Shown: positions 1,336 through 47,321, counted from the stretch's first letter. The stretch is 64,000 nt of DNA from Eubacteriales bacterium (GCA_045586845.1 JAZNBB010000079.1:1180-65179), one strand, 5' to 3'. The notes: generated by a model from the sequence alone, not told the origin. Numbers and translations: made by a program.

Positions 1336-3573
1336 ATGAAAAAGTTACTCGTTTTGTTGGCACTTTGCATGGTTTTCTCTGTTGTTCTGGTTGCTTGTAA
1401 CAACAACGAAGAGCCCGAAGAAACCCCCGCAGAGTCCACCGAAGCTCCCTCCGAGACCGAGTCCGAGTCCGAGTCTGAGACTGAGACCGAGACCGAGACC
1501 GAAACCGAGACTGAGACCGAGTCTGAGTCCGAGTCTGAGTCCGAAACCGAGACCGATCCCGTTCCCGAGATCGATCCCAGCGAACCCGTATTCCTGTTCA
1601 GCGCTGCTGATATCGTTTCCACCGCTACCGGTGCTTCCGACATTGCAAGCGCAGTTGCAAGCGAAGACGGTTCTTACGCAACACTGACCAACGGCACTGT
1701 AGGTGACCCCTACTTCACCTTCCGTGGCATGAACAAGAATGCTCGTTACATTGCCATCAAGTACCGTTCCACCGTTGAAGGTGCTTCCTTCAACCTGTTT
1801 GCAGGCTCCACCGGTGAGAATGCTGACGGTAATGGCGATATGCTTGCTCCTCAGGCATACGTTACCGACGGTGAGTGGAACCTCGCTATCGTTGACCTGG
1901 ATCCCGCTGAGAAGGTAAACGAAGAATGGCTGCTGACCTTCGTTCGTTACGACTTCTACACCGAAGGCACCGAGCAGTCCATCGACGTTGCTTGGATCGG
2001 TGCATTCAACTCTCCCAAGTACGCTTCTGATTACTTCATGAGCACTGCTTGCGTTGGTCTCAACGATGAAGCTGCAGGCCTCAATCGTTGGTCCTTCGAC
2101 GGCTTCTACTTCAACGAAGAGCTGTACTTTGCAGAGGATGGCGGCGCTGCTGACAAGCTGGCTGCACAGAACAACATCGTTCCCGTAAACTACGGCACCA
2201 ATTGCTACAACGTTGGTTTCCGCGGTTGGGTATCCTTCAAGCAGACTGTTGATGCATTCGGCTACTACATCGCAGGCGTGAATGCAAACGTCGTTTACGA
2301 TGAATTCAAGCAGGACAGACCTGACCTTGTAGCTGCAGGTATTGAAAACGGCACCGGCTATAACATCGTCGTTCCCGTTGCTGACCTTGGCTACGGCGAG
2401 CACTACGTAAGCATCTACGCTAAGCTGGCTGACGGCACTGTTGTTAAGGTATATGAGATCTGCCTCAACAAGCTCAACCTGACTGTTGACACCGATACCA
2501 ACTTCATGGTATCCATCGACCACGTAAACGGCAAGGGCCCCTACAACGCTGAGACCGGCGACTGGGCTGCTAACTATGAGGGCATCGGCGGCACCTCTAT
2601 GGGCAAGATCGATGCATCTGTTGACCTCAAGACCAACGACAAGAACGGCATTCTGACCTTTGGCGGTTGGTGCGGCGTTGGCGGCGGTGTAAACCGTTAC
2701 GTTTGGTCCATTGACGGCGTCAACTGGATGGAAATCGTTTCCGGCGGTGTTGACGGTGAGCCTCTTGACGGCTACTACAACGGTCTGAACACCGAAGAAG
2801 GCATGACCTCCACCAAGAACGGTATGTTCGGTGGTGAGAACATGATCCAGATCGACCTCTCCATCTTCCCCGCAGGCGCACAGGGCACCATTCTGCTGGG
2901 CGCGATCCCCGAGAAGAACATCAATTCCGTTATCGTGATCTGCGAGCTGGCTAACGTTACCGTTGCTCCTGTTGTTGAGACCATCTGGTACGACGGCGAA
3001 AACGGCACCTTTACCGTTCCCGCAAGCTTTGAGACCAAGTTCGTTGCAAGAAACGTAGCAGGTCAGATCCTCAAGATCGAAAATGCTTTCAACTTTGTTG
3101 TAACCGCAACCAACGTATACACCGGTCAGTCTGTTGTTCTGCAGCCCAATATGCTGGGCACCATCGAGCAGGAGATTCCCGAAGATTGGGCTATGATCGA
3201 ACTGACTGTTGAAAACGTTACCGAGGAAGCTGTTGAAGTGACCGTTGCTTTTGAAGTACCCGCTTCTCCCTGCCTGACCTTGGGTGACAACGTTGTTACC
3301 GTTACCGTATCCGGCTACTATGCATACGGCGCTGACATGGAGTTCACCGCTGAAGAAGCAGGCACTTATGCTTTCTCTCTGACCGATGATTCCGACGAAG
3401 GTGAGCTGTACTACTGGGAAGCTCCCCACTACGGTTGGATCGAAGAGCTGCCTTTCGTCATCGAGCTTGAGGCAGGTCAGACCATCATCGTCAGCGTTTC
3501 CACCACCAACTACTTCATGGCTGAGGGTGGCGAAGGCTCCGTTGACGTTGACGTTTTCGTTGCAAAGATCTGA
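1336..3573 (+). CDS. Surface lipoprotein, paralogue 1: lipobox, Thr/Ser-Glu linker, one DPY-KYR module and two GW modules (function unknown)
   Basis: N-terminus MKKLLVLLALCMVFSVVLVAC carries the lipobox LVAC. A GGA-rich RBS precedes the ATG. The linker is (ET/ES)n. The module runs GDPYFTF..YIAIKYRS..DGEWNLAIVDL..VRYDF..IDVAWIGAF. A strong terminator lies downstream. Confidence 0.85.
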   Translation: MKKLLVLLALCMVFSVVLVACNNNEEPEETPAESTEAPSETESESESETETETETETETETESESESESETETDPVPEIDPSEPVFLFSAADIVSTATGASDIASAVASEDGSYATLTNGTVGDPYFTFRGMNKNARYIAIKYRSTVEGASFNLFAGSTGENADGNGDMLAPQAYVTDGEWNLAIVDLDPAEKVNEEWLLTFVRYDFYTEGTEQSIDVAWIGAFNSPKYASDYFMSTACVGLNDEAAGLNRWSFDGFYFNEELYFAEDGGAADKLAAQNNIVPVNYGTNCYNVGFRGWVSFKQTVDAFGYYIAGVNANVVYDEFKQDRPDLVAAGIENGTGYNIVVPVADLGYGEHYVSIYAKLADGTVVKVYEICLNKLNLTVDTDTNFMVSIDHVNGKGPYNAETGDWAANYEGIGGTSMGKIDASVDLKTNDKNGILTFGGWCGVGGGVNRYVWSIDGVNWMEIVSGGVDGEPLDGYYNGLNTEEGMTSTKNGMFGGENMIQIDLSIFPAGAQGTILLGAIPEKNINSVIVICELANVTVAPVVETIWYDGENGTFTVPASFETKFVARNVAGQILKIENAFNFVVTATNVYTGQSVVLQPNMLGTIEQEIPEDWAMIELTVENVTEEAVEVTVAFEVPASPCLTLGDNVVTVTVSGYYAYGADMEFTAEEAGTYAFSLTDDSDEGELYYWEAPHYGWIEELPFVIELEAGQTIIVSVSTTNYFMAEGGEGSVDVDVFVAKI
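1453..1554 (+). repeat. In-frame hexanucleotide GAG-WCN repeat encoding (ET/ES)17
   Basis: Read directly as GAG ACC / GAG TCC units: ET x1, ES x3, ET x7, ES x4, ET x2. Confidence 0.9.
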
Positions 3574-3947: not shown

Positions 3948-4008
3948 ATGGTATACCTATCCCTAACGTTAGGTAAAAATTATATTCATGAAAGGAAAAA
4001 ATGACATC

Positions 4009-6612
4009 ATGAAAAAGTTACTCGTTTTGTTGGCTCTTTGCATGGTGTTCTCTGTTGCTCTGGTTGCATGTAATAATGAGCCCGATGAGCCTGTAGAATC
4101 CACGCCTGAGTCCTCCGAAGCCCCCTCTGAGACTGAGTCTGAGGTTCCCACCGAGACTGAGTCTGAAACCGAAACCACAACCGAAACCGAGACTGAGTCC
4201 GAGACTGAGTCCGAGTCCGAGTCCGAGTCCGAAACCGAGCCTCCCGTTCCTGTATTCGAAGGTAACTGGCACGCATCCGTAGACTCTTTCTTGTACTGTG
4301 TAAATGACGACTTCTCTGACGTCGTAGCATTTACAGGTGCAAACACCAACAGCACCATCGGTACCACCATTACCAATGCTGCAAACGAGACTCTTGCTTC
4401 CGTAACTGCTAACTACGTTTACTTTGACAACGGTTGGCTCGCAGTTGACGGTTATGCTATTGAAAACTGGGCTGTTAGCATCTACGCAGAAGACGGCACT
4501 CTGCTCAAGACCGTTGCTCTGACACTCAGAGATGCTGAAGAGGGCGTTGTAAACCACGTTTCTCAGAACATGCACTACGCTGAAGGCACCGTTTCTCACA
4601 GAGTAGGCCAGCTTGATGCTGAGATCATTTCTCTGAAGGAATTCCATAACCAGAACGTTACCGTTGTTTACTCCGTTGACGTTGTCGGCACTGAGTTCAC
4701 CATTGATCTCGTTAAGCTCGACGTAGCTGTTCCTCTTGACCCCAATGCTCCCGTTGCATTTGTTACCGGCGCTTCCATGTACCCCGATATCACCGGCGGT
4801 TCTAATTTCAACAAGGATAATTTTGTTGTCGCTGCTGATGGTTCCTACCTTACCGTTGACACCATCGGTCAGGGTGACCCCTTCTACACTATTGCTGCTC
4901 TCAACGCTAAGGGTTACGTTGCAACTCACATTGCTATTAAGTACAGATCCACATCCACCTACACCGATGCCGAAATGTTCGTAGGCTCCGGTGCAGGCCG
5001 CTCCGGCAATGGCGACAACGTCAGATATACGCTGGTTTGTGACGGCAAATGGCAGCTCGCTGTCGTTGACGTATCTGCACTTTCTGCTATTACTGACAAC
5101 GTAATTAACTACGTAAGCTGGGATCCCTTTGCAGGTGCTGCTGACGCTACCATGGACGTTGCTTACATCGCTCTGTTCACTTCCGCTGAAGCAGCTGTTG
5201 CTTACGACGCTAAGTTCGCTGACGTTTACGTTGACACTCTCAACGTTCCCACCTCTGATTGGGGAGTAACCGGTCACCGTCAGGGCGTTCAGGACGCTAC
5301 CGATGGCATGGTCGCTGCAGGCGGCGTTGAAGCCGGCGCTCTGCTGCACCAGGGTTACATTTCCCTTGGCAACATCAACCTTGCTGAAATGTCCAAGGTT
5401 GTTATCTTCTACGGTGTTGACGGCTCTCAGGTTACCATTGACCTGCACGCTGCTGCTGTTAACAACCGCATCATGCTGACCAGCGCTGACCAGGCTATGA
5501 CCAACTCTCCCACTGAGGACGTTATCCTTGCCGGTGCTACCTACACCGAGCTCGGTTGGGCAGTTCATGCCATCGAGATCGATCTGACCGGTGTTGATTA
5601 CAACGGTCCCGTTTACGTAACCTACGACACTCTGCCCGGCACCTTCATGCTGATTAGCTCTGTTGAGTTTATCTACGATCCTAACTACGTTGCTCCCGAA
5701 GAGCCCGAAGCTCCCGCAGAAGATCCCTTCTACGCAGTAAGCTTCTACCAGGCTAATAAGGAAGCTACCTACTACTTCACCGGCGCTATGGACGGTTACT
5801 ACCTCGCAACCTCCACCAACCCCGCTGATGCTGCAAAGGTTTACATCGAGACTCACGAAGAGGGTCTGAGAATGTACGTTCTGGTTGACGGCGTTAAGAC
5901 CTACGTAGAGATCTACGAGTATGAGAATAACGGCACTATGAAGGGCGGCGTTCACATGACCACCGAGCCCACCACCTTCTTCGTATTGAATGAAGAGGCT
6001 GGCACTTACGTTACTGATTTGGGTGCAACCGGTATCTTCTACCTGGGTACCTACAATAACTACACCACCGTTAGCGCTTCCAACATTTCCTTCATCACCG
6101 GCGACAACGCTTCCAAGGTTGGCGTATCTCAGTTCCCCATTGAGTGGACCGCATATCCCGAAGCAGTTGAGCCCGAAGAGCCCGCGGCTCCTTCTTACGT
6201 TGACAAGGCTACTGCAGGCATGATCGGCGAATCTTGCGATACCGTTACTCTGAATGCAGGTATGTACTTTGCGGAAGATGGCAATGCTTACGCTAAGCTC
6301 GAAGCAGTTGAAAACCACCTGACCATCAAGGTTGGTGACGTGATCGGCTTCAGAGGCTGGATTGGCTTCCCTCAGGCATTTGATCAGTTCGGCGTTATTA
6401 TCAATGACGGTGAGTTCCTTGGCGGCGAGTACAAGCAGGCTACTGAGGAGATCATTTACACCCTCGCAGGTGAAAATGCATCCAGATACCACGTCACCGT
6501 TGATACTGCCGGTGTTGCCGCAGGTGATTACAAAGTAGCTTGGGGCGCAAAGCTGGCTGACGGTACTGTTGTAGTATTCTACACCGTTACCATTACCGTT
6601 GAGGCTGCTTAA
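4009..6612 (+). CDS. Surface lipoprotein, paralogue 2: lipobox, Thr/Ser-Glu linker, DPY-KYR module, GW modules (function unknown)
   Basis: The ORF opens at 3988, but the ATG at 4009 reproduces the RBS and start context of paralogue 1. It gives MKKLLVLLALCMVFSVALVAC. The module runs GDPFYTI..HIAIKYRS..DGKWQLAVVDV..VSWDPF..MDVAYIALF. Confidence 0.85.
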   Translation: MKKLLVLLALCMVFSVALVACNNEPDEPVESTPESSEAPSETESEVPTETESETETTTETETESETESESESESETEPPVPVFEGNWHASVDSFLYCVNDDFSDVVAFTGANTNSTIGTTITNAANETLASVTANYVYFDNGWLAVDGYAIENWAVSIYAEDGTLLKTVALTLRDAEEGVVNHVSQNMHYAEGTVSHRVGQLDAEIISLKEFHNQNVTVVYSVDVVGTEFTIDLVKLDVAVPLDPNAPVAFVTGASMYPDITGGSNFNKDNFVVAADGSYLTVDTIGQGDPFYTIAALNAKGYVATHIAIKYRSTSTYTDAEMFVGSGAGRSGNGDNVRYTLVCDGKWQLAVVDVSALSAITDNVINYVSWDPFAGAADATMDVAYIALFTSAEAAVAYDAKFADVYVDTLNVPTSDWGVTGHRQGVQDATDGMVAAGGVEAGALLHQGYISLGNINLAEMSKVVIFYGVDGSQVTIDLHAAAVNNRIMLTSADQAMTNSPTEDVILAGATYTELGWAVHAIEIDLTGVDYNGPVYVTYDTLPGTFMLISSVEFIYDPNYVAPEEPEAPAEDPFYAVSFYQANKEATYYFTGAMDGYYLATSTNPADAAKVYIETHEEGLRMYVLVDGVKTYVEIYEYENNGTMKGGVHMTTEPTTFFVLNEEAGTYVTDLGATGIFYLGTYNNYTTVSASNISFITGDNASKVGVSQFPIEWTAYPEAVEPEEPAAPSYVDKATAGMIGESCDTVTLNAGMYFAEDGNAYAKLEAVENHLTIKVGDVIGFRGWIGFPQAFDQFGVIINDGEFLGGEYKQATEEIIYTLAGENASRYHVTVDTAGVAAGDYKVAWGAKLADGTVVVFYTVTITVEAA
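4129..4239 (+). repeat. In-frame GAG-WCN repeat encoding a Thr/Ser-Glu linker
   Basis: GAGACTGAGTCT...GAGTCCGAGTCCGAGTCCGAAACCGAG. Same repeat type as 1453..1554, but with different length and order. Confidence 0.85.
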
Positions 6613-27234: not shown

Positions 27235-29691
27235 TCAGTCACGCTTTCTTGTGGTGAATGCGCAGCCAAGCAACAGCAGTACAGCGACAACACTTGCACC
27301 CACCATGCTCTTACAGCCGCTCGGTTCAGCGGGCTCGGGCTGTGCAACGGGCTGCTCGGTAGTAGGTTCTTCGGTTGTGGGAGGTTCGGTCTCGGCAGCT
27401 GCCTGTGCCAGCTCCTCAAGCTTTGCGGTCAATGCTGCCGCATCTGTTTCAATTGCAGCAAGAGCTTCTTGCGCCTGTGTTTGTAATGCTTGCGCGTCTT
27501 CTACCTGATTGGTCAACGCTTGTGCCGATGTATTAGCAGCTTCGATCGAAGCAACACCTGCTTTGATTTTATCAAGCAATGCAACTGCTTCTGCATACAG
27601 TGCAGGAGTTTTTTTGTTGGCATTTTCAAGCTCCTTGGCAGCGTCCAATGCGCCTGTAGCATTTTCTGCCTGTACGGTAGCACTGCTTGCGATACCGTCA
27701 AGTGCTTTCTTGACGTTAAGCACGTCTACCAGCTTTTGCTTGAATGTGCCGAAATCGGCGATACAGCCCTCGGGAATATAGCCCTCAGTCAGCTTTTGCG
27801 CATCTTCTTGTGTCTTGGCGAACGCCAGCATGGAGAAGGTCATGCTCAGACCCTTTTCTACAGTCGGACCGTCAAAAATGTCAAAGCGCAGGTTGTTGAT
27901 TTTGCCTGCCCAACCGGGCTTTCCTGTCATATCAATGATGTGATAGGTAAATTCGTCACCCTTGGGCACTTCAAACCGTACAGTCTGACCGCCAACAGCA
28001 CCCATTGTCGAGCCGCAAGCATAGTAAATAGCCGAGGTGCTGGAGTTCACCTCTCTATCGGTCTTGACACGAAGAACGATATATTTATATTCATCCGCGC
28101 TGATCTGAGAAAGAGAGGTCATATCAAATGCAGCATAGGGGTCATTGCTTTGGGTGTTGAGCTTGATCACCATGCCGCCCTCCTCTGCATCGTAATACGT
28201 ATCGACAGCATTGTGTCCGCCCATAAACTCACTCATCAGCTCACCGCATACGTATTCGGTCGAAATATCCTTGTAGTCAAACAAAGGGTATTCGATGTGA
28301 TCCAGAGGACCCTGTGCTTCGCAAACAGGCTGCTCGTTCCACACAAAGCCAATGCCGTTGATCACGCCGCGCACTGAGCTGCCTATGATATTGCCCGCAT
28401 CATCCTTAAGGGGATCGGAGCCTTTGTTTCTTGCAACGTAGGTAGCACCACTGTCTGCCTCGTTCATGGAAACAAATGTGGCAGAACCGCCGCCGTCCAT
28501 ATAAAATACGCTGTTATAGCCCAGCTCCTGGCAGAACTGTACGCCCTTGGTAAAGTTCAAGCCCGCATACTTGCCGTGCTGCTGAGAGTTGATTGTCAGC
28601 ATCATGACTTTACCGTCGTTTTTATATCCGATCAACGTGGTGGGATATTCCGAATTATTGCCGTTGGAGGAAAAGATCTTGCCGTCATTGAGCACGATCA
28701 TATGGCCGCCGATAGCATCCTCCACGTTTTGCCAAAGCTCTGTGTTGCCCAGCTTGTCGGTTAAAGCAAGAGAGAAGGATACTGTATCACCCACGGCAAA
28801 ATGATTTTTGAGTGTATCGATCTTGTTGCCGCGCGCGGTCAGCACGATATTTTTCTCATTGAAGGTGGGTCTTGTCGAGGAGTTTGCAGGATAGATCGCC
28901 TTGACCGTTCCGCTGACCTTGCCGTCAAGCGTAAATGCGGAAGACTCCACTTCGATCTCGATCTCGTAAGCGTCCGAGAGAGCATAGTTGGTGTCGTTGC
29001 AGCGGTAGTTATATACGATCAGGGAGTTCCATGCGGGCAGGCGGTTGATACCGTCAACCGCAGCGGTATAGTTTTTTGTCTCATTTTGGATCGAAATATC
29101 CACTACGGGAATACCCACAAGTGGCTGATTGGTCGCGGTGATACCAAACGATGCTTTGTCAGGGCTGGTCGTGCCCTTTTCAGCGTTGGTGGCAACGTAG
29201 TTTTCCATACCGATCTGTTGGGTTGCCCAGATCTCCCCGTCGATCATGGTAAAGCCGCGCGGAACTTTCAGTACCTTGGTGGTTACCTGTTCGTTGCTGT
29301 GCACGTTTGTCATCCAAAGGTCGCCGTTGACGGCTGCCAGCACGGTTTGACCCGTATGTGCTGCGTTATACGCCTCGGATGCACGCATCATAGTTGCACC
29401 GGATACCATGTAGTCACCGCAGTTGATGACCTCAACAGACAGATTCGTATTTGCAAGATCACCCACGGCAACCAAAACTTCTTTGTCACCGTATGTGCCT
29501 GAAAGCGTGATCTTTTGTATGGTCACACCTGTTTTCGTGCCATCCGACAGCGTAACCTCCTCGGTCTCTCGTCCGGTCTCGCCGTCAAGTGTGCCAACGG
29601 GATCGGAAGGCTCTTCGGCATAAGCGATCAAAGGGAGAAGAACTCCCAGGCAAAGTGTCAGACTCAAAAGAATTATAAAAAACTTTTTCAT
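27235..29691 (-). CDS. Secreted phosphodiester glycosidase-like protein: DPY-KYR module, coiled-coil stalk, Gly-Cys C-terminal tail
   Basis: The signal peptide is MKKFFIILLSLTLCLGVLLPLIAYA. The NAGPA/DUF2233-like pattern is LAAVNGDLW ... TTLIGYKNDGKVMMLTI ... YNSVFYMDGGGSATFV. The module runs NDPYAAF..YKYIVLRVKT..NNLRFDIF. The protein ends SGCKSMVGASVVAVLLLLGCAFTTRKRD. Confidence 0.8.
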   Translation of the reverse strand: MKKFFIILLSLTLCLGVLLPLIAYAEEPSDPVGTLDGETGRETEEVTLSDGTKTGVTIQKITLSGTYGDKEVLVAVGDLANTNLSVEVINCGDYMVSGATMMRASEAYNAAHTGQTVLAAVNGDLWMTNVHSNEQVTTKVLKVPRGFTMIDGEIWATQQIGMENYVATNAEKGTTSPDKASFGITATNQPLVGIPVVDISIQNETKNYTAAVDGINRLPAWNSLIVYNYRCNDTNYALSDAYEIEIEVESSAFTLDGKVSGTVKAIYPANSSTRPTFNEKNIVLTARGNKIDTLKNHFAVGDTVSFSLALTDKLGNTELWQNVEDAIGGHMIVLNDGKIFSSNGNNSEYPTTLIGYKNDGKVMMLTINSQQHGKYAGLNFTKGVQFCQELGYNSVFYMDGGGSATFVSMNEADSGATYVARNKGSDPLKDDAGNIIGSSVRGVINGIGFVWNEQPVCEAQGPLDHIEYPLFDYKDISTEYVCGELMSEFMGGHNAVDTYYDAEEGGMVIKLNTQSNDPYAAFDMTSLSQISADEYKYIVLRVKTDREVNSSTSAIYYACGSTMGAVGGQTVRFEVPKGDEFTYHIIDMTGKPGWAGKINNLRFDIFDGPTVEKGLSMTFSMLAFAKTQEDAQKLTEGYIPEGCIADFGTFKQKLVDVLNVKKALDGIASSATVQAENATGALDAAKELENANKKTPALYAEAVALLDKIKAGVASIEAANTSAQALTNQVEDAQALQTQAQEALAAIETDAAALTAKLEELAQAAAETEPPTTEEPTTEQPVAQPEPAEPSGCKSMVGASVVAVLLLLGCAFTTRKRD

Positions 29692-31853
29692 GACTGATCT
29701 CCTTTTTTGATTTTATTTTTTATGAATACAACAAAAGTCCAAGGTAAAAGCGCACAAAGAGGTATGGTGAGAATGCTCTTACAGCCTGAAGCATTCTCAT
29801 TTTGTTCAAATTGTTGGGGAGGGATATATTCCAGTCCCGGACCCTGCGTAGGGATCTCAATGGTGGAAATTTCTGTTTCTGACGGAAGGGACTCGGGTTC
29901 AACGGTAACTGGGCCTTTGTCGGAATCAATACCGTTTTCCGCGGCGTACGCTTCCCATGCGCCAACATCCTGGAAAAACAGCATATCGGCAAGGCACACG
30001 CGCTGTCCTGCATTGATCTGACTGGAAAAATCCAGGCGCATACCCAAAATCTCATCAGTCCAAGCCTCTCTGCCTGCCATTTCGTAGACAAGATATTCCC
30101 ATTCTCCGCCTTCATAGTTTGCGCCGACTGCACGCGTGCCTTGGGCAAAATCCAAACCGCCCGAATAGTAATACAGGACAAATCCCTTGCCCTGGATCTT
30201 TTTGTCTGACTGGATGCGAAGTACGATCACACCGTAGTCTTCGGCGCGCAGCATGGGCAGTCCGGTCGTGGCTGCGTATTGTTGCAGGCTGAAGCTGACA
30301 AAGGGATCATTAGTGGTCTCGGTGGCTTGCAGTATCAGATGTCCGTATTCGTCAAAGCTGTAAGAGGATTGATTTTCACCGCCAAAGCAATCTGCCAGCG
30401 ACTGGTCAAACCAGGTAATGGCATCTGCTTTGCCCGAGGGTGCGCGCCCTTCTTCTGCATATGGGTCTTGAGGTGCTATTCCTTGCTCGTGATATATTTC
30501 CAAAGGTTGTGCGGCTGCTTGCTTTGCGCTTTCTTCGTCGGGATAAAAGCCGATCGAAGCAATGTTGGCATAGTCTGAGGTATTGGCATGTCCGTCTATA
30601 AAATCAAAGCGCATACCATATACCGTACCTGTCCAATGCTCTTCTTTACATAAAGGGATCACGTAGGTATGCCACTTTCCATCGTTAGTTGGCTGAAAGG
30701 CAACGTGACTCTCTCCGTGTGGTCCGTGGATATCACCTGCGCACAAAAACAGGCGGAAATGCCCCTCTGAATTGGTGCGAGGTGTTTGCAGCGTCATAAC
30801 TGCATATCGGTAATGATCGGCAGTGATCTGTGCATCCTGGGTATCTTTGAGATATTTGTTCAGGTTGAAATAGATATATGGGTCATTTGTGTCTGCGGTA
30901 GGGTACAGGCGCATATAGGTGCCTACGGTATCGTCGGACATAAGGGAGGCATCCACGGCGTTTGCACCACTCAGATATTCGTAAGGGGTGGCAGTCATGT
31001 GCACGGTCAGCTCGCCGCGGTAGTAGTCGGGCACGGTGGAATAAAAGCGAATGCGGGAGATCGCGGTCTGCTCTGCACAGCTCAACAAAAGCTTACCCAT
31101 GTATTGCGCATCATTCAGATCAACAATTGCGGTATAGGAACCGTCTTGGTTTTGTACGGGTGCGGATGAATTTGCCTGAAAGGGAAGGACGGAGGATCGC
31201 TCGCTATGCAGCGTCAGAACTGTGTTTTTATCGAGTATGAACTCTGCATATTGATAATCGCGCAAGTTATAAGCATCCAGAGAAAGCTCGGTATTTGCTT
31301 GCAGGGTCAGTATACCGTTCTGCGCACCGAATGCAGACAAATTGAGCTCTCGGTATGCCATGGTTTCCGTATCGGTATCTCCGATGGATACGTCCAGCAT
31401 GGCGAGCACCTCGAGTACGTTACCCTGATCGGTATATCCGCGCAAAAATATGTCGTAATTGCCGCGCTTCAGACCGGAGACGTCAATGTTCAGGTGAAAT
31501 CCTGCGGTTTTGTAGGTGTTTGGGCAAATGCTTTTCAAATCGTCTCGCTGTACAATTGCCTTGGTGCTTCGCTGCCAGGTCCTGCCACCGTCTAAAGTGT
31601 ATGCATATGCCTCCATTTTTTGCTCGGTCTTGATCCAACCTGCCAGAGTCAGCACGGGATCTGTACCGTGTTTGATGTTTTTCAGTATGGCGGGCATACC
31701 TGTGGCGGAGGTGCTGCTTGGGTGATCGACCGTGACTGAGTAATCTTGTACCGCTGAAGCAGAGATCCACGGGCAAAGTGCACCGGCAAGCAGCGAAAGA
31801 CATAATGCTGTGCATAATATCCGATAGAATTTTATGTAAAAGGATTCTTTCAT
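29688..31853 (-). CDS. Secreted protein: one GW module, two DPY-KYR modules, Gly-Cys C-terminal tail (function unknown)
   Basis: An RBS AAGGAG precedes the start and a signal peptide ends ISASA. The modules run TNDPYIYFN..YRYAVMTLQT..GKWHTYVI..GMRFDFI..IASIGFY and TNDPFVSFS..YGVIVLRIQS..GEWEYLVY..GMRLDF. The protein ends SGCKSILTIPLCALLPWTFVVFIKNKIKKGDQS. An ATGA overlap links it to the next gene. Confidence 0.8.
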   Translation of the reverse strand: MKESFYIKFYRILCTALCLSLLAGALCPWISASAVQDYSVTVDHPSSTSATGMPAILKNIKHGTDPVLTLAGWIKTEQKMEAYAYTLDGGRTWQRSTKAIVQRDDLKSICPNTYKTAGFHLNIDVSGLKRGNYDIFLRGYTDQGNVLEVLAMLDVSIGDTDTETMAYRELNLSAFGAQNGILTLQANTELSLDAYNLRDYQYAEFILDKNTVLTLHSERSSVLPFQANSSAPVQNQDGSYTAIVDLNDAQYMGKLLLSCAEQTAISRIRFYSTVPDYYRGELTVHMTATPYEYLSGANAVDASLMSDDTVGTYMRLYPTADTNDPYIYFNLNKYLKDTQDAQITADHYRYAVMTLQTPRTNSEGHFRLFLCAGDIHGPHGESHVAFQPTNDGKWHTYVIPLCKEEHWTGTVYGMRFDFIDGHANTSDYANIASIGFYPDEESAKQAAAQPLEIYHEQGIAPQDPYAEEGRAPSGKADAITWFDQSLADCFGGENQSSYSFDEYGHLILQATETTNDPFVSFSLQQYAATTGLPMLRAEDYGVIVLRIQSDKKIQGKGFVLYYYSGGLDFAQGTRAVGANYEGGEWEYLVYEMAGREAWTDEILGMRLDFSSQINAGQRVCLADMLFFQDVGAWEAYAAENGIDSDKGPVTVEPESLPSETEISTIEIPTQGPGLEYIPPQQFEQNENASGCKSILTIPLCALLPWTFVVFIKNKIKKGDQS

Positions 31854-32002
31854 TAAGTCGCTCCTTTTGCTTACAATATCTCATTTTATATTATACAATA
31901 AAAAATACTGTCTGCAAAGGGGGATGGCGTCATTTTGGGGATTTGACCAAAATTTCGGTGCATTGCACAAAAAGACTCTTTTTGGAGTGAAACAAAAGAA
32001 AA

Positions 32003-32053
32003 CCCTTGCTTCATGGCGTTGTGTCCTTAGGAAGGCAACGCCATGAACAAGGG
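32003..32053. terminator. Long hairpin terminator downstream of the 277-aa surface protein gene
   Basis: CCCTTGCTTCATGGCGTTG ... CAACGCCATGAACAAGGG, flanked by A-runs and T-runs on both strands. Confidence 0.7.
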
Positions 32054-32095
32054 TTTTAAAATGTTCAATTCAAATTGTTTCAGTCAGACAAAGGA

Positions 32096-32926
32096 TCAGT
32101 CCTTCTTCTTAATGCAAACTGCGCCCAGAGCAACGATAGCAACAACTGCACCGATGCTGATGATGCTGCCGCAACCCTTTTCTTCCTCTACGGGCTTGGT
32201 AGCAGAGGGCTTCTTGGTGGACTCTTTCTCAGTTTCTTCCGCAGTGGTTTCCTCAGACTCCTCTACAGTGGTCTCCTCGGTCTCTTCCTGATCCAGACCT
32301 GCGTATGCAATTGCTTCGTCCTCGGTAGCAAACAGAGCTACCTCGTACAGATATATCATAGTGTCCTCTTCAGCACCTACGGGGTCAAATCTGAACTGAT
32401 TGTAGACACCTTCGCAGTCGCCGGTCAGATCATAGATGATGTACTCGATCTCGCCGGAGGCATCGCAAGGATAGTCAGTATTGGTGGAGACGCCGGGCGT
32501 TGCAGCAGTCACTTCGCCTGCACAGTAAAACAGCTCGAAATCGTCAACATAGCCATCTATCTTAAGCTTGATGACAACATAGGGATATTCCTGAGAATCA
32601 ACCTTTTCAAGTCCTGCCTTACTGATGTAAGTGGACCAGTTGATGGTAACGAAGGGGTCACCGATATCGGTGAGTCTCAGTCTTGCGCCTTCCCATTCGG
32701 GCTTGTAATACGTCTTGTTAATACCGGTAGGATTGCTGAGGATCTTCCATAACTTAGCATCCTCGTTAAAGGTCAAAAGAGTGTTGGAATAAGCGGTAGC
32801 TTCGCCTTCAGCTGCAGTGGTTTCTTCGCCTTCAGCTGCGGTGGTCTCTTCTGTAGCAACAGCAACCAGAGCAAAGCAGGAAGCAGCCAGCAGCATGGAG
32901 AGAACCAGAGCCAGTAATTTTTTCAT
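32096..32926 (-). CDS. Small secreted protein: signal peptide, single DPY-KYR module, acidic linker, Gly-Cys C-terminal tail
   Basis: The ATG at 32926 gives MKKLLALVLSMLLAASCFALVAVA, with RBS AAAGGAG. The module runs GDPFVTINW..YPYVVIKLKI..NQFRFDPV..IYLYEVALF. The protein ends KGCGSIISIGAVVAIVALGAVCIKKKD. Confidence 0.85.
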   Translation of the reverse strand: MKKLLALVLSMLLAASCFALVAVATEETTAAEGEETTAAEGEATAYSNTLLTFNEDAKLWKILSNPTGINKTYYKPEWEGARLRLTDIGDPFVTINWSTYISKAGLEKVDSQEYPYVVIKLKIDGYVDDFELFYCAGEVTAATPGVSTNTDYPCDASGEIEYIIYDLTGDCEGVYNQFRFDPVGAEEDTMIYLYEVALFATEDEAIAYAGLDQEETEETTVEESEETTAEETEKESTKKPSATKPVEEEKGCGSIISIGAVVAIVALGAVCIKKKD

Positions 32927-32967
32927 GGTAAAAATCTCCTTTACACTATATATTGTTTGCACTTATC

Positions 32968-32996
32968 ATTTTATACCATTTTCAGAAAAATGTCAA
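32968..32996 (-). promoter_or_regulatory. Promoter of the 277-aa surface protein gene
   Basis: On the minus strand: TTGACA, a 17-nt spacer, then TAAAAT. Confidence 0.6.
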
Positions 32997-33037
32997 CAGA
33001 AACCAAGTAATTTTTTGTTTTTTTATATAATACTGTG

Positions 33038-33068
33038 AAAAAAGGGCTGACACTTGAAGCGTCAGCCC
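33038..33068 (-). terminator. Rho-independent terminator of the 304-aa surface protein gene
   Basis: GGGCTGACAC-TTGAA-GCGTCAGCCC with a T-run on the minus strand. It is homologous to the terminator at 34112..34142. Confidence 0.75.
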
Positions 33069-33095
33069 TGAAATACTGCGTATTTTCGGTATCAA

Positions 33096-34010
33096 TCAGT
33101 CTTTCTTTTTGAAGCAAATTGCACCGAGAAGTACCATGGAAAGCATTGCGACCACACTTACGCTTGCGGATGCATTGCAACCAAGCAGCGTGGGGAGAAG
33201 ACCTTGAAATCCTTTAAGAGGAATATCCATGAAATCTGAGAGCAGGTCTTCGGGGTCTTTCATTTCGGGTATGACATCCGGCTGTACATTTACCTCGGGG
33301 GTCGGAACGGGATGCTCTGTCATTTGACCGGAGGTAATGACCTCCGCGGTCTCCCATACAATGTCTTCGGTCTCGGTTTCGGGCGCGACGGTTTCATGAA
33401 CGGTTGTCTCGGTCTCTTTCCGATCAAAACCTGCGTATGCAATTGCTTCTTCCTCTGTAGCAAACAGTGCCAACTCGTACAGGTATATGACGGTGTCCTC
33501 ATCAGCACCCATGGGGTCTATTCTGAACATATTATAGTTGCCTTCGCAATCGTCTGTCAGGTCGTAGATGATGTATTCGATCTCACCCGAACACTCACAA
33601 GGATAGTCGGTTGTAGTACCGTAACCACCTGTAGGAACTGTAATTTCACCTGCGCAGTAGAACATCTCCATATCCTCTATGTAGCCTTCTACCTTGAGCT
33701 TGAATACGACAAAGGGATATTCCTGAGAATCAACCTTTTCAAGTCCTGACTTGTTGATGTAAGCAGACCAGTTGATAGTAACGAAGGGGTCACCGATGTC
33801 GGTGATCTTCAGTCTTGCGCCTTCCCACTCGGAGGAGTAGTAGGTTTTGTTAATACCGTTGGGAGAGGTAATGACCTTCATACTTTTTGCATCATCGTTA
33901 AAGACAAGCAGTGTGTTGGAAAAAGTATTCTCTTCCGTAGCAACAGCAGCCAAGGTAAAGCAGCCGGTAAGCAGCAGCAATGAAAGAACAAACGTTAGAA
34001 ATTTTTTCAT
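33096..34010 (-). CDS. Small secreted protein: signal peptide, single DPY-KYR module, acidic linker, Gly-Cys C-terminal tail (paralogue of 32096..32926)
   Basis: N-terminus MKKFLTFVLSLLLLTGCFTLAAVA. The module runs GDPFVTINW..YPFVVFKLKV..NMFRIDPM..IYLYELALF. The protein ends LGCNASASVSVVAMLSMVLLGAICFKKKD. Confidence 0.85.
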   Translation of the reverse strand: MKKFLTFVLSLLLLTGCFTLAAVATEENTFSNTLLVFNDDAKSMKVITSPNGINKTYYSSEWEGARLKITDIGDPFVTINWSAYINKSGLEKVDSQEYPFVVFKLKVEGYIEDMEMFYCAGEITVPTGGYGTTTDYPCECSGEIEYIIYDLTDDCEGNYNMFRIDPMGADEDTVIYLYELALFATEEEAIAYAGFDRKETETTVHETVAPETETEDIVWETAEVITSGQMTEHPVPTPEVNVQPDVIPEMKDPEDLLSDFMDIPLKGFQGLLPTLLGCNASASVSVVAMLSMVLLGAICFKKKD

Positions 34011-34061
34011 AGTAAAAAGCTCCCTTGCGAAATTTTTTTTGCAGCCCGGATCATTGGTATT

Positions 34062-34090
34062 ATTTTAAGCTACTTTGGGAGATTTGTCAA
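34062..34090 (-). promoter_or_regulatory. Promoter of the 304-aa surface protein gene
   Basis: On the minus strand: TTGACA, a 17-nt spacer, then TAAAAT. Confidence 0.6.
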
Positions 34091-34111
34091 CAGCAAACAA
34101 GCTTTTTTATC

Positions 34112-34142
34112 AAAAAAGGGCTGACGCTTTATGCGTCAGCCC
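34112..34142 (-). terminator. Rho-independent terminator of the 1079-aa surface protein gene
   Basis: GGGCTGACGC-TTTAT-GCGTCAGCCC with TTTTTT on the minus strand. Confidence 0.8.
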
Positions 34143-34171
34143 TGACAAGGGAATATTTTATCGGTATTTGA

Positions 34172-37100
34172 TCAGTCCTTTTTCTTGAAGCAAAGCGCAC
34201 CAAGAGCAATGACCGAGGTCAGAGCAACGATTGCGCCTGTAGCCAGAGCGGACTTGCAGCCCTTCTTTTCCTCTGTAGGCTCTGTCTCGTCGCCGTTATT
34301 TGTATCGGGAGTATCAGTGCCGTCGGGAGCGTCGGTGCCATCAGTACCGTCGGGAGCATCGGTGCCGTCGGGAGCATCGGTGCCATCGGTGCCGTCGGGA
34401 GCACCGGTGTCGGTATCGGAGCCGGTATCAACAGGAATCTCGGTGTAAACAGCATTTACAACAACGTCCTTGCCCATTTCAAACTCTTCCCAAACGCCGG
34501 TGAAGCCTTCCTTAGCGGGAACAGAGGGAGCAGCGATGGACTCGGTGCCTTCTCTGTAGCGAACCTCCTTCACTACAACGTCATCAGCCTTAAAGGTGAC
34601 GGTGTAGAACTTGGGAGCAGTCCAGACCTGTGCGTCGAATGCTTCAACGTCGCCGGTGGTATTGAAGAAGCCGATGTAAGCTACGTCAATGGAACCGGGG
34701 TAACGCAGGAAGTCGAAACGGAAGTAGTCAAGAGAAACGGTATTGTCCTCGTTGACCTGCAGTTTACCGGGATAACCTGCAGCGGTTGCAACGTCGATCA
34801 GGTTGACGTATGCCAGGTGCCATTCACCGTCGTTCTGAATGGGATTGACAAACTGCAACCAGTCGTCACCGGACAATTCACCCTTACCGATGAAGCACTC
34901 GTTGTGTATCTCGTGTGCCAGATCGGAGACGGTTCTGTATCTGATAGCCAGGATCGGACCAACGGTCAGGTTTGCACCGTGCAACAGGAAGAAGCTGGGG
35001 TCGCCGCCGTTGCAGGACAGGGTCATGTAGCCCTCGTCGTAGTTGTAAACGCCTGCAGCATCGGTTACGCCCATGGTGGTGAACAAGCCCTCACCGTCAA
35101 AGATGAAGCCTTCAACAGTGGAAGGATCAACAGGAGTTGCGGGAGCTGCTTCATCGGCAGCGGCAGCAGCCTCTGCAGCAGCAGCGTTGGAGTAGAATGC
35201 GATGTAGGAAATGTCAATGGAGCCGGAAGAACCGACGATGGGGTCAAAACGGAAGTTGGTCAGAGTCTGACCGTACAGGTCGCCCCAAATAGCGGAAGCA
35301 TCCACGATGGTGGTGTGCCATTCGCCGTCGTTGACATAAGTGATGTCTGTGTGAGTCTTTTCAAAGGGGTTAGCCCAGCCATAGCCGCCGGAGGTGCCGG
35401 TAAAGAATTCACCCGATGCAGCTGCGGTGGTTCTGTACTTGATTACGATATAGCGCAGCTGGTTTGCAAAACCGGTAGGCTGTACGTTGAACATGAAGTA
35501 GGGGTCATCGCCCGTAATATTGAAGGTTACGTAGCCTTCAGTGGTCTTGGTGTTAGCAATTTCAACATGATTGGGAGCGCCTGCGGGGCTGGTAAAGCCA
35601 TATGCAGCAGCGGCGTCCTCGAGCCACAGAGAGTAGTCATATACGAACGTGGGGCTCATGGAGTGCATATTGCCGATGTCAACCAGAGAATCGGTAGCTG
35701 CGTCGTAAATGGTCTCGTTCTTGCAGATTCTGTTGAGCATACCTGCAACGTTCGCGTTTGCGGAAGCCTCACGCAGAGAGGGGGACTTGTAAACGCCAAC
35801 GTATGCGATATCGATAGAGCCTGCAAAGCCGATTGCGAGATCAGCGATAGCGTCCAGCTCTGCGGTATCCAGATCAATGTATGCAAAGTTCCACAGGCCG
35901 TCGGTGGTCAGAGCTACGGGCTCGCAGCCATTGACGGTCAGGGTAGCATCAGCGGTATTGGTTCTGTAAATAACAGCAACATACTTGAATGCGGGGTTGA
36001 GGTCAGCGCCAACGTTGGTGATGGCTGCGCCCTCTGCGGTTGCGACTGCCTTAATGTATCCGGCAGTTGTCTTAATGATCGAAGCGTCCTGCGTGGGCAG
36101 GAAGTCGATCTCCTCTGCACCGGTGGTCAGATCCCAGATAAGCTGAGCGGGATTTGCTGCTACGTAGTAGCCCATAAAGCCGCCCTCTACCTTTTCGCCG
36201 TTTACAAAGAACTCGACGTCAGGGTTGACTGCGGTGTCAGCAGCCTTACCGGTCAGCTGGCCGTCAATGGGAGTGAACTGCAGGTAGAGCTCGCCGGACA
36301 GTGTGCCTGCGGGAACCTCGATGGTGGCATCAGCATTGTCTGCAATGCCTGTGACCTCGGTAGTCCAAACGGGTCTTACAGAGGTGGTGGTAGCGATGTC
36401 GGTGTTCCAAGCGAAAGCTTCAACCTTCATCTTGTCGGTGGAGTTTGCGTAGTTAGCAAGACTTTGAACAGTGAAGGAGTACAGTCCGTTGTATGCATTG
36501 ATATGTACGCCGAAGGAGCTTGTGCCGGTGCCGCCGTTAAACAGGGCAGCAGTGGTGCCTTCGCCGACTGCCACGGTGGAGATGTCCATGTGGATGGTGC
36601 CGGTCAGGGTCACGCTCTGATAATTATCGTTTCTTGCCTGTACAGCAACGGTGTGAATACCGCCTGCCAGGGTGTTGGTGGGAATGGTCAGGTTTTCAAA
36701 AGCACCGCTCTCGCCTGCTTCGTAAGCAGCCTCGGTCCAGGTGCCGCCATTGATGGAGTAGTACCAGGAGGTCCATGCGCCGTCCGGAATATTCAGCGTA
36801 CCGCCAAGAACTACATTCTCACCGATATTGACGGAGGGAATACCGTTTGCAAAGGGATTGGTGGTCAGATTGAGCTCGTACTGCCCTGCTTCAAGCTCCT
36901 GAGATTTGAAAAACTCAATGGACTTGATGTCAATGGTGCAGCCGGAAGCGTTGCCGCCGGTAAAGGGATCAAGACGGAACAGTTGCAGCGCGGGAGAGTG
37001 CTGCGGGTTTTGCGTCAGATCCAGGATCAAGGTGTTCCAGTTGCCGTCATTTACGTAATCGTATTGCAGGCAAGCGAAATCACCGGAGTTGAGGAAGTAT

Positions 37101-37411
37101 TCGCCCATAGTGCACGCGGAGGTGGTTCTGTAGGTGATCTTCATAAACTGACTTTGACCGATATCTGCAGCCTTTGCGTTATAGTAAACGTAAGGGTCAG
37201 TACCGGAGGTGGTAAAGGTGGCGTATTCGGTGCCGTCTTCGTCCGACCCCTTGGCGATCGTCAACTGGTTTGAGCCGGTTCCGGTCGTAGCCAGGTCATC
37301 GGGGGTCAGTGCAGCAAGCACCGTGCCTTCGGCTGATGCAGTCAGCGCAAGTCCGGTCATGCAGGAAGCCAACAGCAAAGCAGAAAGCAAAAAGGATAAT
37401 GCTTTTTTCAT
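34172..37411 (-). CDS. Large secreted protein: three or four DPY-KYR modules, a GW-like module, a Listeria-Bacteroides-type repeat, (DGT)n linker, Gly-Cys C-terminal tail
   Basis: The signal peptide MKKALSFLLSALLLASCMTGLALTASA follows RBS AAGGAG. The modules begin GTDPYVYYN..MKITYRTT, GDDPYFMFN..YIVIKYRTT..GEWHTTIV..FRFDPI..IDISYIAFY and GGDPSFFLL..ILAIRYRT..GEWHLAYV..FRFDFL..IDVAYIGFF. The repeat pattern is YTVTFKADD...PAKEGFTGVW. The protein ends KGCKSALATGAIVALTSVIALGALCFKKKD. Confidence 0.85.
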   Translation of the reverse strand: MKKALSFLLSALLLASCMTGLALTASAEGTVLAALTPDDLATTGTGSNQLTIAKGSDEDGTEYATFTTSGTDPYVYYNAKAADIGQSQFMKITYRTTSACTMGEYFLNSGDFACLQYDYVNDGNWNTLILDLTQNPQHSPALQLFRLDPFTGGNASGCTIDIKSIEFFKSQELEAGQYELNLTTNPFANGIPSVNIGENVVLGGTLNIPDGAWTSWYYSINGGTWTEAAYEAGESGAFENLTIPTNTLAGGIHTVAVQARNDNYQSVTLTGTIHMDISTVAVGEGTTAALFNGGTGTSSFGVHINAYNGLYSFTVQSLANYANSTDKMKVEAFAWNTDIATTTSVRPVWTTEVTGIADNADATIEVPAGTLSGELYLQFTPIDGQLTGKAADTAVNPDVEFFVNGEKVEGGFMGYYVAANPAQLIWDLTTGAEEIDFLPTQDASIIKTTAGYIKAVATAEGAAITNVGADLNPAFKYVAVIYRTNTADATLTVNGCEPVALTTDGLWNFAYIDLDTAELDAIADLAIGFAGSIDIAYVGVYKSPSLREASANANVAGMLNRICKNETIYDAATDSLVDIGNMHSMSPTFVYDYSLWLEDAAAAYGFTSPAGAPNHVEIANTKTTEGYVTFNITGDDPYFMFNVQPTGFANQLRYIVIKYRTTAAASGEFFTGTSGGYGWANPFEKTHTDITYVNDGEWHTTIVDASAIWGDLYGQTLTNFRFDPIVGSSGSIDISYIAFYSNAAAAEAAAAADEAAPATPVDPSTVEGFIFDGEGLFTTMGVTDAAGVYNYDEGYMTLSCNGGDPSFFLLHGANLTVGPILAIRYRTVSDLAHEIHNECFIGKGELSGDDWLQFVNPIQNDGEWHLAYVNLIDVATAAGYPGKLQVNEDNTVSLDYFRFDFLRYPGSIDVAYIGFFNTTGDVEAFDAQVWTAPKFYTVTFKADDVVVKEVRYREGTESIAAPSVPAKEGFTGVWEEFEMGKDVVVNAVYTEIPVDTGSDTDTGAPDGTDGTDAPDGTDAPDGTDGTDAPDGTDTPDTNNGDETEPTEEKKGCKSALATGAIVALTSVIALGALCFKKKD
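34301..34429 (-). repeat. In-frame short tandem repeats encoding a (A)PDGTD(GTD) linker
   Basis: GGTGCCGTCGGGAGCATC-type units are reiterated on the plus strand. The translation is DTGSDTDTGAPDGTDGTDAPDGTDAPDGTDGTDAPDGTDTPDT. Confidence 0.8.
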
Positions 37412-37571: not shown

Positions 37572-38456
37572 TTAATATGCTGTGCCTACGTACATTCCGT
37601 CCGAATACGTAACGATATATGTGCCGGCATAAAGCGTCTGACCGTCCAGTCGGACGTACGGTGTCAGGGCGATACTGACTTGTCCGGTGGATAGGACGGA
37701 CAGGGTGGATGTAAATACTTGACCGCCAAGCTCATCTGCGGTATAGACCCTGCCACCGCCTTCGATCTGATCTGATATTTCGGAGCCGCCAAGCGTCAAT
37801 TCGCGCGTGCCGTCCGCATCGGTCACGGCGCAAACAAATCCGTAGCTGCCGCGGGAGAGCGCGGCATCGGGATCGACGAGTGCGCACAGACGCACTGTGA
37901 CTTTGCCGCCCGAGGGATTGGTCTCCTGGCAGGCAAGATAACGTGCAGGGCAGGTGGGCGGTGCGGGAGCTGTCAGGGTAATGTATCCTTGGCAACCGCT
38001 GATATGCAAAGGCGACGTGCTACCGTCATCTGCAAGCACATAAAAAGAGGCGGGATCGGGTACAGTACAGCTTACGGCATAATTGCCCGGCTGTGCTTCC
38101 TCGGAGCAGGAAAAGGTCAGCGCGAGAAAAGCACCGCTGATCTGCACGTTTTGTGCGGCGTCCAGCAGCAGATTGACCTTGCCGTTATTATCGTGGTACG
38201 TCAGCGTCAGTTCAGTATTTGTTTGTAACAGTTGTGCGTTTTTGAGTGTAAACAGCGTATTGTCGTACTGTATGCACACAAAACCACCCGCCAGTGTTGT
38301 ATCGGGCAGAGAAAGGGTGAGTGTGATGTCCCGGCCGGGTTCTGCGTCCGTTGTCTGCAAAAGGGTCAGTGCGGACGGGTCCCCTGCATCTGCGGGCAGT
38401 ATCAACACGCCAAGCAAGAAGCAACAGATCAAGGCAAAACACAGGCGTGATCTCAT
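37572..38456 (-). CDS. Secreted cohesin-like domain protein
   Basis: RBS AAGGAG precedes the start, and the signal peptide is MRSRLCFALICCFLLGVLILPADA. The N-terminal half follows the cohesin pattern AEPGRDITLTLSLP..LAGGFVCIQYDNTLFTL ... GAFLALTFSCSEEAQPGNYAV. The C-terminal half is unassigned. Confidence 0.5.
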   Translation of the reverse strand: MRSRLCFALICCFLLGVLILPADAGDPSALTLLQTTDAEPGRDITLTLSLPDTTLAGGFVCIQYDNTLFTLKNAQLLQTNTELTLTYHDNNGKVNLLLDAAQNVQISGAFLALTFSCSEEAQPGNYAVSCTVPDPASFYVLADDGSTSPLHISGCQGYITLTAPAPPTCPARYLACQETNPSGGKVTVRLCALVDPDAALSRGSYGFVCAVTDADGTRELTLGGSEISDQIEGGGRVYTADELGGQVFTSTLSVLSTGQVSIALTPYVRLDGQTLYAGTYIVTYSDGMYVGTAY

Positions 38457-47299: not shown

Positions 47300-47321
47300 A
47301 ACATCCTCCGTTACGGAAATT

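Follow-up and report, generated by a model that had tools for sequence, protein, structure and literature searches.

A tripartite Gly-Cys tail as a candidate C-terminal sorting signal of surface proteins in uncultured gut Clostridia

Gene block and shared C-terminal tail

A stretch of 64,000 nucleotides (nt) from a Eubacteriales bacterium (GCA_045586845.1 JAZNBB010000079.1:1180-65179), referred to below as the window, contains five consecutive minus-strand genes (27235-37411) that encode proteins of 818, 721, 276/277, 304, and 1079 amino acids (aa). All of these end in the same type of tail, consisting of a Gly-Cys (G-C) motif, a hydrophobic helix, and a short basic cluster with Asp (Table 1). 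This G-C tail, a candidate sorting signal, is the subject of the present analysis. On inspection, all five N-termini resembled signal peptides, with a basic start followed by a hydrophobic stretch. The initial annotation, which was made from the DNA sequence, had described five signal-peptide-bearing proteins and quoted their tails. Both were retrieved exactly in the list of open reading frames (ORFs), and a regular-expression search of all window ORFs of at least 80 aa restricted the combination of Cys, hydrophobic stretch, and basic C-terminus to these five proteins. It had also correctly reported that four of these tails have a further Cys close to the C-terminus.

Table 1. Tail-bearing proteins, their tails, and associated genes in the window
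Feature	Coordinates	Strand	Basis or remark
818-aa secreted protein: NAGPA phosphodiester glycosidase domain (PF09992), one jelly-roll domain, coiled-coil, E/T/P linker, G-C tail	27235..29691	-	ORF, Pfam
Tail of 818-aa protein: GCKSMVGASVVAVLLLLGCAFTTRKRD plus stop	27235..27318	-	
721-aa secreted protein: two jelly-roll copies, G-C tail	29688..31853	-	4-nt overlap with downstream 818-aa gene
Tail of 721-aa protein: GCKSILTIPLCALLPWTFVVFIKNKIKKGDQS plus stop	29688..29786	-	
276/277-aa secreted protein (277 from MKKLL start): signal peptide, acidic linker, one jelly-roll domain resembling a carbohydrate-binding module, acidic linker, G-C tail	32096..32929	-	
Tail of 277-aa protein: GCGSIISIGAVVAIVALGAVCIKKKD plus stop	32096..32176	-	
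304-aa protein, paralogue of 277-aa protein (52% identity): one jelly-roll copy, G-C tail	33096..34010	-	
Tail of 304-aa protein: GCNASASVSVVAMLSMVLLGAICFKKKD plus stop	33096..33182	-	Best sub-threshold MYXO-CTERM (TIGR03382) score
1079-aa secreted protein: at least two jelly-roll domains, D/G/T/P linker, G-C tail	34172..37411	-	
Tail of 1079-aa protein: GCKSALATGAIVALTSVIALGALCFKKKD plus stop	34172..34261	-	
Secreted cohesin-like protein, no tail, first gene of conserved cluster	37572..38456	-	PF00963; synteny
Lipoprotein: LVAC lipobox, acidic linker, jelly-roll, no C-terminal tail	1336..3573	+	
Second lipoprotein: jelly-roll, no C-terminal tail	3988..6612	+	

A Pfam search of the five tail proteins found nothing except the NAGPA domain of the 818-aa protein. 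An iterated hidden Markov model (HMM) derived from homologues of the 277-aa protein revealed the same domain of about 140 aa in all five (copy numbers in Table 1). An AlphaFold2 model of the 277-aa protein showed a beta-jelly-roll with a predicted local distance difference test score (pLDDT) above 90 across most of residues 45-212, and the best Foldseek matches of this fold in the PDB were the carbohydrate-binding modules (CBMs) CBM86, CBM29, CBM6, and CBM11. The tail was modelled with a pLDDT below 50 and is uninformative on helix packing. Because of the shared domain and the resemblance of its jelly-roll to CBMs, the five proteins are probably glycan-binding surface proteins. Judging from this domain they are paralogues, so that they do not represent five independent cases of the tail.

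The jelly-roll domain is also present in two lipoproteins without a tail, encoded by adjoining genes on the opposite strand, with near-identical signal peptides (MKKLLVLLALCMVFSV[VA]LVAC) and ETE/SE-repeat linkers. One predicted ectodomain type is combined with two tethers in this organism, namely an N-terminal lipid anchor or the C-terminal tail. Lipobox-like motifs (L-[VL]-A-S-C / L-T-G-C) occur in the signal peptides of the tail-bearing 277-, 304-, and 1079-aa proteins as well (32851-32929, 33933-34010, and 37334-37411). This signal-peptide Cys is found in 74 of 80 homologues; after it, the sequence continues with further hydrophobic residues and Ala24, which is invariant. If it acts as a lipoprotein signal, these three proteins would be tethered at both ends.

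Conservation and geometry of the tail

Among the window paralogues, the tails are 50-66% identical at the DNA level and 28-59% at the amino acid level. Since the tail DNA is only 50-66% identical, the common features have been maintained rather than recently copied, as the initial annotation had argued. For the 277-aa protein, 85 homologues were collected, 80 of them full-length, and all 80 end in x-C-[GNK]-[GSN]-...-L-G-x-x-C-[IF]-K-K-[KR]-D, the invariant columns being the Cys, L-G, the second Cys, and K-K..D; Gly precedes the Cys in 80%, and Ser, Asp, or Asn in the others. When the 14 most divergent homologues are aligned with the window protein, tail identity reaches 71%, compared with 40% for the linker and 36% for the ectodomain. 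On these alignments, purifying selection is stronger on the tail than on the ectodomain. Similarly, orthologues of the 721-aa protein in four loci (L001, L002, L050, and L057) retain G-C ... KKGD[RQL]S, and a protein of 1066 aa that matched the tail profile described below (P0092) aligns with the 1079-aa protein along its full length and has the same tail type. A tail regular expression matched 114 of the 120 top-ranking homologues of the 818-aa NAGPA protein (48-83% identity), and most of the other six also have G-C followed by a helix. In this family, neither the helix sequence nor the basic cluster is constant, the latter varying among RKRD, KKRD, RKKD, RKKK, and RRKEE. Orthologues that keep the helix and lose the Gly-Cys motif, a possibility raised at the outset, are not what the two families display, given a Cys in 80/80 and a matching tail in 114/120. 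One NAGPA homologue (P0181) carries a dockerin and no G-C tail.

Tail geometry was calculated over 271 distinct tails, a set skewed toward KKKD-type ends by the choice of DNA patterns; the NAGPA homologue set, which is free of this bias, shows the same signature. The position before the Cys is Gly in 92% of the tails and otherwise Ser, Asp, or Asn. Hence, of the Gly-Cys motif as originally proposed, the Cys stands as invariant and the Gly does not. Position +1 is mostly Gly (57%), Lys (24%), or Ala (7%), and position +2 Ser (64%), Gly (23%), or Ala (11%). The distance from the Cys to the first basic residue is 20-21 residues in 83% of the tails (range 19-25); the charged end comprises four residues in 86%, and Asp is the last residue in 86%. 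Gly and Ala are abundant in the helices, some of which contain Pro, and the 30 residues that precede the tail are dominated by Glu (22%), Thr (21%), Ala (14%), and Pro (12%). A second Cys within the last ten residues, as in four of the window tails, occurs in 115/271 tails and is not a general feature.

Distribution across genomes and protein families

A search of 1.84 billion representative proteins with a 33-position profile of the tail returned 58 matches at E<=1e-3. About 42 were single matches at the very C-terminus of proteins of 31-1079 aa, which differ in length and domain content. The profile thereby added about 40 carriers from metagenomes. About 16 multi-stretch matches were discarded as unrelated tandem 'NGCDS[IV]VT' repeats. 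Long proteins made up of such repeats of about 45 aa (P0086, P0096, P0097, P0099, P0103, and others) are systematic false positives of the tail profile, and several of them end in a domain that resembles a type IX secretion sorting domain. Against a word-indexed set of 5.8 billion proteins, for which the query is too short, the tail-only profile retrieved nothing at E<=10.

In addition, 185,579 GTDB species genomes were scanned with two DNA patterns. The pattern G..C[IF]KKKD-stop gave 49 matches, 29 of them in long ORFs, all from Clostridia, Eubacteriales, or Oscillospiraceae metagenome-assembled genomes (MAGs) of herbivore guts, and in each of the 29 the Cys motif stands where the helix begins. 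Its matches in other lineages were ORFs of at most 40 aa, save for a longer one (L041; 237 aa) that lacks the motif. With G-[VTAI]-A-x-V-x-KKKD-stop, 103 ORFs were retrieved, of which 86 have a Cys motif (mostly G-C) directly before the helix. In both scans, matches outside this Clostridia clade were almost all short ORFs, none with the Cys motif. A chance origin of the tail is excluded on these counts, because the Cys motif sits exactly at the helix start in 29/29 long ORFs of the first pattern and in 86/103 ORFs of the second. Together, the scans yielded 112 distinct tails in 42 species-level MAGs of herbivore-gut Clostridia; a single MAG contributed as many as six through the two patterns, both of them narrow.

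The carriers fall into 14 clusters without BLAST similarity to one another, and their families include GDSL esterases, an N-acetylmuramoyl-L-alanine amidase (amidase_3), FIVAR, CBM9, NAGPA, and Listeria-Bacteroides repeats. A single carrier cluster comprises 1586 member sequences in public metagenomes. This clade-wide spread was no part of the initial annotation, nor were the paralogy through a CBM-like domain and the sortase-type tails in the same MAG loci treated below. Five metagenomic mini-ORFs of 66-141 aa (P0088, P0091, P0095, P0113, and P0123) comprise nothing but a lipoprotein signal peptide joined through an acidic E/T/P linker to a G-C tail; these are either real mini-proteins or arose when similar N- and C-terminal linkers recombined or were collapsed during assembly.

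The window itself is chromosomal and lies near the replication origin, with recF recognized by Pfam and dnaA, dnaN, gyrB, and gyrA identified at 7.7-19 kb by inspection of ORF translations. No database record matched the window proteins in searches by exact sequence. It encodes a SleB-type cell wall hydrolase, and related loci contain the spore-associated genes for YtfJ and a Peptidase_M50. Tail-bearing MAGs are labelled Eubacteriales, Clostridia, or Oscillospiraceae at NCBI. The clade consists of uncultured gut Clostridia that are probably spore-forming, and the host would, by inference, be monoderm. Two syntenic loci in GTDB species MAGs (L001 and L002) retain three of the genes with their tails.

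Comparison with known C-terminal signals

None of the described CTERM models of NCBIfam release 20 reached its cutoff with the six window proteins searched whole, the five window tails, or ten further tails, so that the tail is not covered by them. The tail of the 304-aa protein scored 12.6 bits against MYXO-CTERM model TIGR03382 (cutoff 15.85), and a score of 12.2 bits was obtained with MYXO-CTERM model TIGR03901 (cutoff 20), both alignments being on the G-C region. Synerg-, CGP-, JDVT-, and Firmicu-CTERM did not match at E<=10 (15 tails and six whole window proteins). GlyGly-CTERM/rhombosortase, PEP-CTERM/exosortase, and PGF-CTERM/archaeosortase were rejected as assignments, with just trace matches to PGF_CTERM and cyano_PEP of 7-12 bits, far under cutoff. 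Literature searches returned no description of this Bacillota tail, and the terms Firmicutes, Bacillota, and Clostridia are absent from the main paper on Cys-signature signals (10.1101/2023.06.07.544157). Neither this tail family nor its phylum, Lys/Asp end, or monoderm setting is catalogued; the kind to which it belongs, a Cys-signature tripartite C-terminal signal, is known.

The initial annotation had noted that MYXO-CTERM-type signals use a Cys signature, which is indeed the case (Haft 2023, 10.1101/2023.06.07.544157; Guo, Haft and Wall 2025, PMC11980579). Described Cys-signature tripartite signals are MYXO-, JDVT-, Synerg-, and CGP-CTERM, which are processed by CPBP/Rce1-type 'myxosortases' (10.1101/2023.06.07.544157); one of these, the CPBP protease MrtX, has been verified experimentally (PMC11980579). 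In Cys-type processed signals, the signature abuts the helix without a spacer, which is their hallmark and differs from LPXTG; T/S-rich linkers precede them, conserved mid-helix residues occur, and the myxosortase is encoded apart from its substrates (10.1101/2023.06.07.544157). All of these typical features hold for the G-C tail, which has no spacer, a Thr-rich linker, conserved helix residues, and no processing enzyme in the neighbourhoods inspected. The tripartite architecture of dedicated sorting signals, as claimed initially, was likewise recovered, with the spacer-free signature, the helix, and the basic cluster kept in orthologues and on many unrelated ectodomains.

The MYXO-CTERM signal (TIGR03382 'GC_trans_RRR' / TIGR03901; MrtX) shares with the G-C tail its position at the extreme C-terminus, a Gly-Cys that abuts a single helix, a basic cluster, an occurrence on many unrelated secreted proteins per genome, and an enzyme unlinked to its substrates. 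However, it has an Arg-rich end and belongs to Myxococcota, whereas the G-C tail has a Lys-rich end with Asp, occurs in monoderm Clostridia, and scores under the HMM cutoffs. Furthermore, MYXO-CTERM involves an outer membrane and type II secretion system (T2SS) step, which is presumably lacking for the G-C tail. Lineage-restricted Cys-signature tripartite tails without a spacer are also represented by CGP-CTERM of Thermococcales (archaeomyxosortase MrtA) and Synerg-CTERM of Synergistales (MrtS). CGP-CTERM resembles the G-C tail in its preceding Thr/Ser-rich linkers and its cells without an outer membrane (10.1101/2023.06.07.544157). Unlike G-C-[GK]-[SG], the signatures of these two classes are C-G-P or an S/G-rich run ending in Cys; they occur in other phyla, and their HMMs did not match. 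The N-terminal lipobox (Lgt/Lsp) has in common with the tail a Cys at the outer helix end, a small residue at position -1 (mostly Gly), and an adjoining acidic linker. A lipobox lipoprotein signal ([LVI][ASTVI][GAS]C) was nevertheless rejected for the tail, since the motif lies at the opposite end of the protein, a charged linker instead of an h-region precedes its Cys, and the helix polarity is reversed, the small -1 residue being shared.

As the initial annotation had stated for sortase, exosortase, rhombosortase, and CPBP/Abi proteases, no such enzyme is recognizable in the window; Pfam searches of the window ORFs found no sortase, CPBP (PF02517), rhomboid, or exosortase-like gene. When polytopic membrane ORFs near tail genes were clustered, the recurrent ones were Rnf subunits (by inspection) and a Gx-transporter (PF07456), with no proteases among them. 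In eight loci (L074, L093, L100, L124, L132, L145, L148, and L154), G-C-tailed GDSL-family genes of about 620 aa lie in a conserved neighbourhood with RnfA/E-like subunits (by inspection) and the Gx-transporter (PF07456).

Proposed mechanism and alternative explanations

The favoured reading, held with moderate confidence, is that the tail is a dedicated, modular, processed C-terminal sorting or anchoring signal of a clade of uncultured gut Clostridia. The proteins would be exported by the Sec pathway through their N-terminal signal peptides. The C-terminal helix and the Lys-rich KKKD would then stop transfer and hold the protein in an N-out/C-in orientation, which would place the invariant Cys at the outer face of the membrane, 20-21 residues from the first Lys according to the tail statistics. 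The E/T/A/P-rich linker may cross the wall and display the ectodomain. The G-C-[G/K]-[S/G] signature, abutting the helix without a spacer, could be recognized by unlinked housekeeping machinery, upon which a lipid would be attached to the Cys thiol and an intramembrane protease would cut off the helix with KKKD, by analogy with MYXO-CTERM and CAAX processing. The most likely candidate for this protease is of the CPBP/Rce1 type, with a rhomboid as an alternative. The product would be a C-terminally lipid-anchored protein on a monoderm surface; the five CBM-like or glycosidase surface proteins of the window would use this C-terminal anchor, and the two paralogues the N-terminal lipoprotein anchor. 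By the same analogy, lipidation of the thiol followed by removal of the helix would be the most economical mechanism. It is tentatively suggested that the G-C tail represents a Cys-type system for sorting and C-terminal lipid anchoring, the first in monoderm bacteria (Bacillota), which would operate in parallel with sortase.

Several observations weigh against a processed signal of this kind. Homology to known signals is unproven, as no CTERM HMM reached its cutoff. The known bacterial Cys-type signals are from diderms with a T2SS, which is presumably lacking in this lineage. The basic cluster is Lys-rich and usually terminated by Asp (KKKD, RKRD, KKRD) instead of Arg-rich, and the skew of the 271-tail set toward KKKD-type ends has to be kept in mind here. 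Surveys of 10 kb on either side of tail genes on about ten independent contigs (L050-L061), with the neighbourhoods of eight carriers annotated by Pfam, turned up no sortase, CPBP, rhomboid, or exosortase-like gene, and regular expressions for CPBP and sortase motifs did not match in 1.3 Mb of tail loci. Lastly, the helix is unusually conserved within orthologue groups, with a small-xxx-small pattern (GAVVAIIALG) that fits a permanent anchor with helix-helix contacts. As to the enzyme, a missing linkage to the tail genes is also the rule for MYXO-CTERM; myxosortases were reportedly identified by whole-genome co-occurrence profiling.

The main rival, which is considered rather unlikely, is a permanent type I membrane anchor that is never cleaved. 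The helix itself would then anchor the mature protein, and the conserved G-C and, in some proteins, the Cys on the cytoplasmic side would have another role, such as helix packing or oligomerization, S-acylation, or metal or thiol chemistry at the surface of the membrane. Besides the conserved helix, in which L-G is invariant near the inner end, it is favoured by the second Cys beside KKKD in 115/271 tails, by the processing enzyme not being found in the neighbourhoods inspected, and by the names given to homologues by the Prokaryotic Genome Annotation Pipeline (PGAP), which are just 'phosphodiester glycosidase family protein'. A permanent anchor has no need of an invariant Cys at the outer face, yet this residue is fixed over at least 14 unrelated ectodomain families with very different helices. 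Gly/Ala-rich helices, some with Pro, as in the tails, are typical of intramembrane-protease substrates. Moreover, a signature that abuts the helix is the hallmark of processed signals, and proven sorting signals also have conserved mid-helix residues (10.1101/2023.06.07.544157).

Alternatively, the tail may be a shedding signal, with an intramembrane or juxtamembrane protease, such as a rhomboid, cutting at G-C-G-S so that an unlipidated ectodomain is set free into the wall or medium. Small residues flank the Cys at the outer helix boundary, and helix-destabilizing Gly and Pro occur within the helix; rhomboids are common in Bacillota and favour small-residue or helix-destabilized sites. Shedding is nonetheless improbable, for it leaves the invariance of a Cys, rather than an Ala, Ser, or Gly, unexplained; the carriers, which have long linkers spanning the wall, are of a kind typically bound to the cell surface, and no rhomboid was present in the neighbourhoods inspected.

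A divergent sortase substrate, in which G-C-G-S replaces LPXTG and leads to peptidoglycan linkage, is very improbable. The G-C tail resembles the LPXTG/NPXTG/SPXTG signals of Bacillota in its helix and short charged end (KKKD, KRREN), its low-complexity wall-spanning linker, and the similar surface proteins that carry it, but it differs in the absence of a PxTG pentapeptide and a spacer and in the presence of the Cys signature. Scores were weak for Rumino_NPXTG (NF033846; cutoff 23.5), at 11-14 bits, and for LPXTG_anchor (TIGR01167; cutoff 15.9), at 12.2 bits, with alignments confined to the helix and charged end, and Pfam found no Gram-positive anchor domain in the tail proteins of the window. 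Related MAGs do pair SPxTG with the same ...KKKD end, as 12 KKKD-ended ORFs without Cys have [ST]PxTG or QTG followed by a spacer; these come from Ruminococcus or other Oscillospiraceae MAGs and show no overlap with the 42 G-C MAGs. The sortase variant was rejected on the basis of genuine sortase-type tails, which form a separate class beside the G-C tails in the same MAG loci, where tandem genes of about 360 aa that end in xP(x)TGD, a helix, and KRREN adjoin G-C tail genes. Such tandem genes were found in 11 loci (L067, L100, L101, L113, L116, L124, L126, L132, L140, L145, and L148). Because both tail classes coexist and are cleanly separable, two pathways are indicated instead of a degenerate sortase motif, which argues for the G-C tail as a signal separate from sortase signals. 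Since it has no PxTG, no spacer, and a Cys signature, the tail is probably handled by a membrane-embedded enzyme, and its carriers would be anchored to the membrane or a lipid instead of linked to the wall.

Finally, a paralogy artefact, with tails alike purely through the common ancestry of five adjacent genes that share a repeated jelly-roll domain, is barely credible and was rejected, as G-C, spacing, and basic-Asp end persist at the low tail DNA identity, the tail is better conserved than the ectodomain, and the signature occurs on at least 13 other BLAST-unrelated families.

C-terminal sorting signals define how the bacterial surface is built up, and every further class of them has brought another enzyme family to light, as is the case for sortase, exosortase, archaeosortase, rhombosortase, and myxosortase. 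The signature marks several surface proteins per genome, encompassing glycosidase-like, esterase, cell-wall amidase, and CBM-like ones, in abundant, uncultured Clostridia of the herbivore gut. Current annotation pipelines do not flag the tail; an HMM for it would improve prediction of the surface proteome of fibre-degrading communities and would give a clean phylogenetic profile for an enzyme hunt. If the Cys is lipidated, the logic of CAAX and MYXO-CTERM extends to Gram-positive bacteria, and gut Clostridia would possess a third tether, besides lipobox and sortase, for glycan-binding and hydrolytic surface proteins.

Other features of the window

The gene for the cohesin-like protein upstream of the block leads the conserved cluster in every syntenic locus, and no dockerin was detected among the window proteins. 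The ftsH gene is broken into two overlapping minus-strand ORFs (49453-50610 and 50433-51578), one coding for the N-terminal AAA part and the other for the AAA end, the lid, and peptidase M41. The break is a frameshift, caused by an assembly error or reflecting a pseudogene. An 805-aa DUF5722 protein (44912-47329, minus strand) has a long basic stretch at its C-terminus (...KLRRYKKAAR), and its orthologue in locus L001 has a C-terminal helix before this stretch without the Cys signature. The DUF5722 protein represents a second, different type of C-terminal membrane anchor at the same locus.

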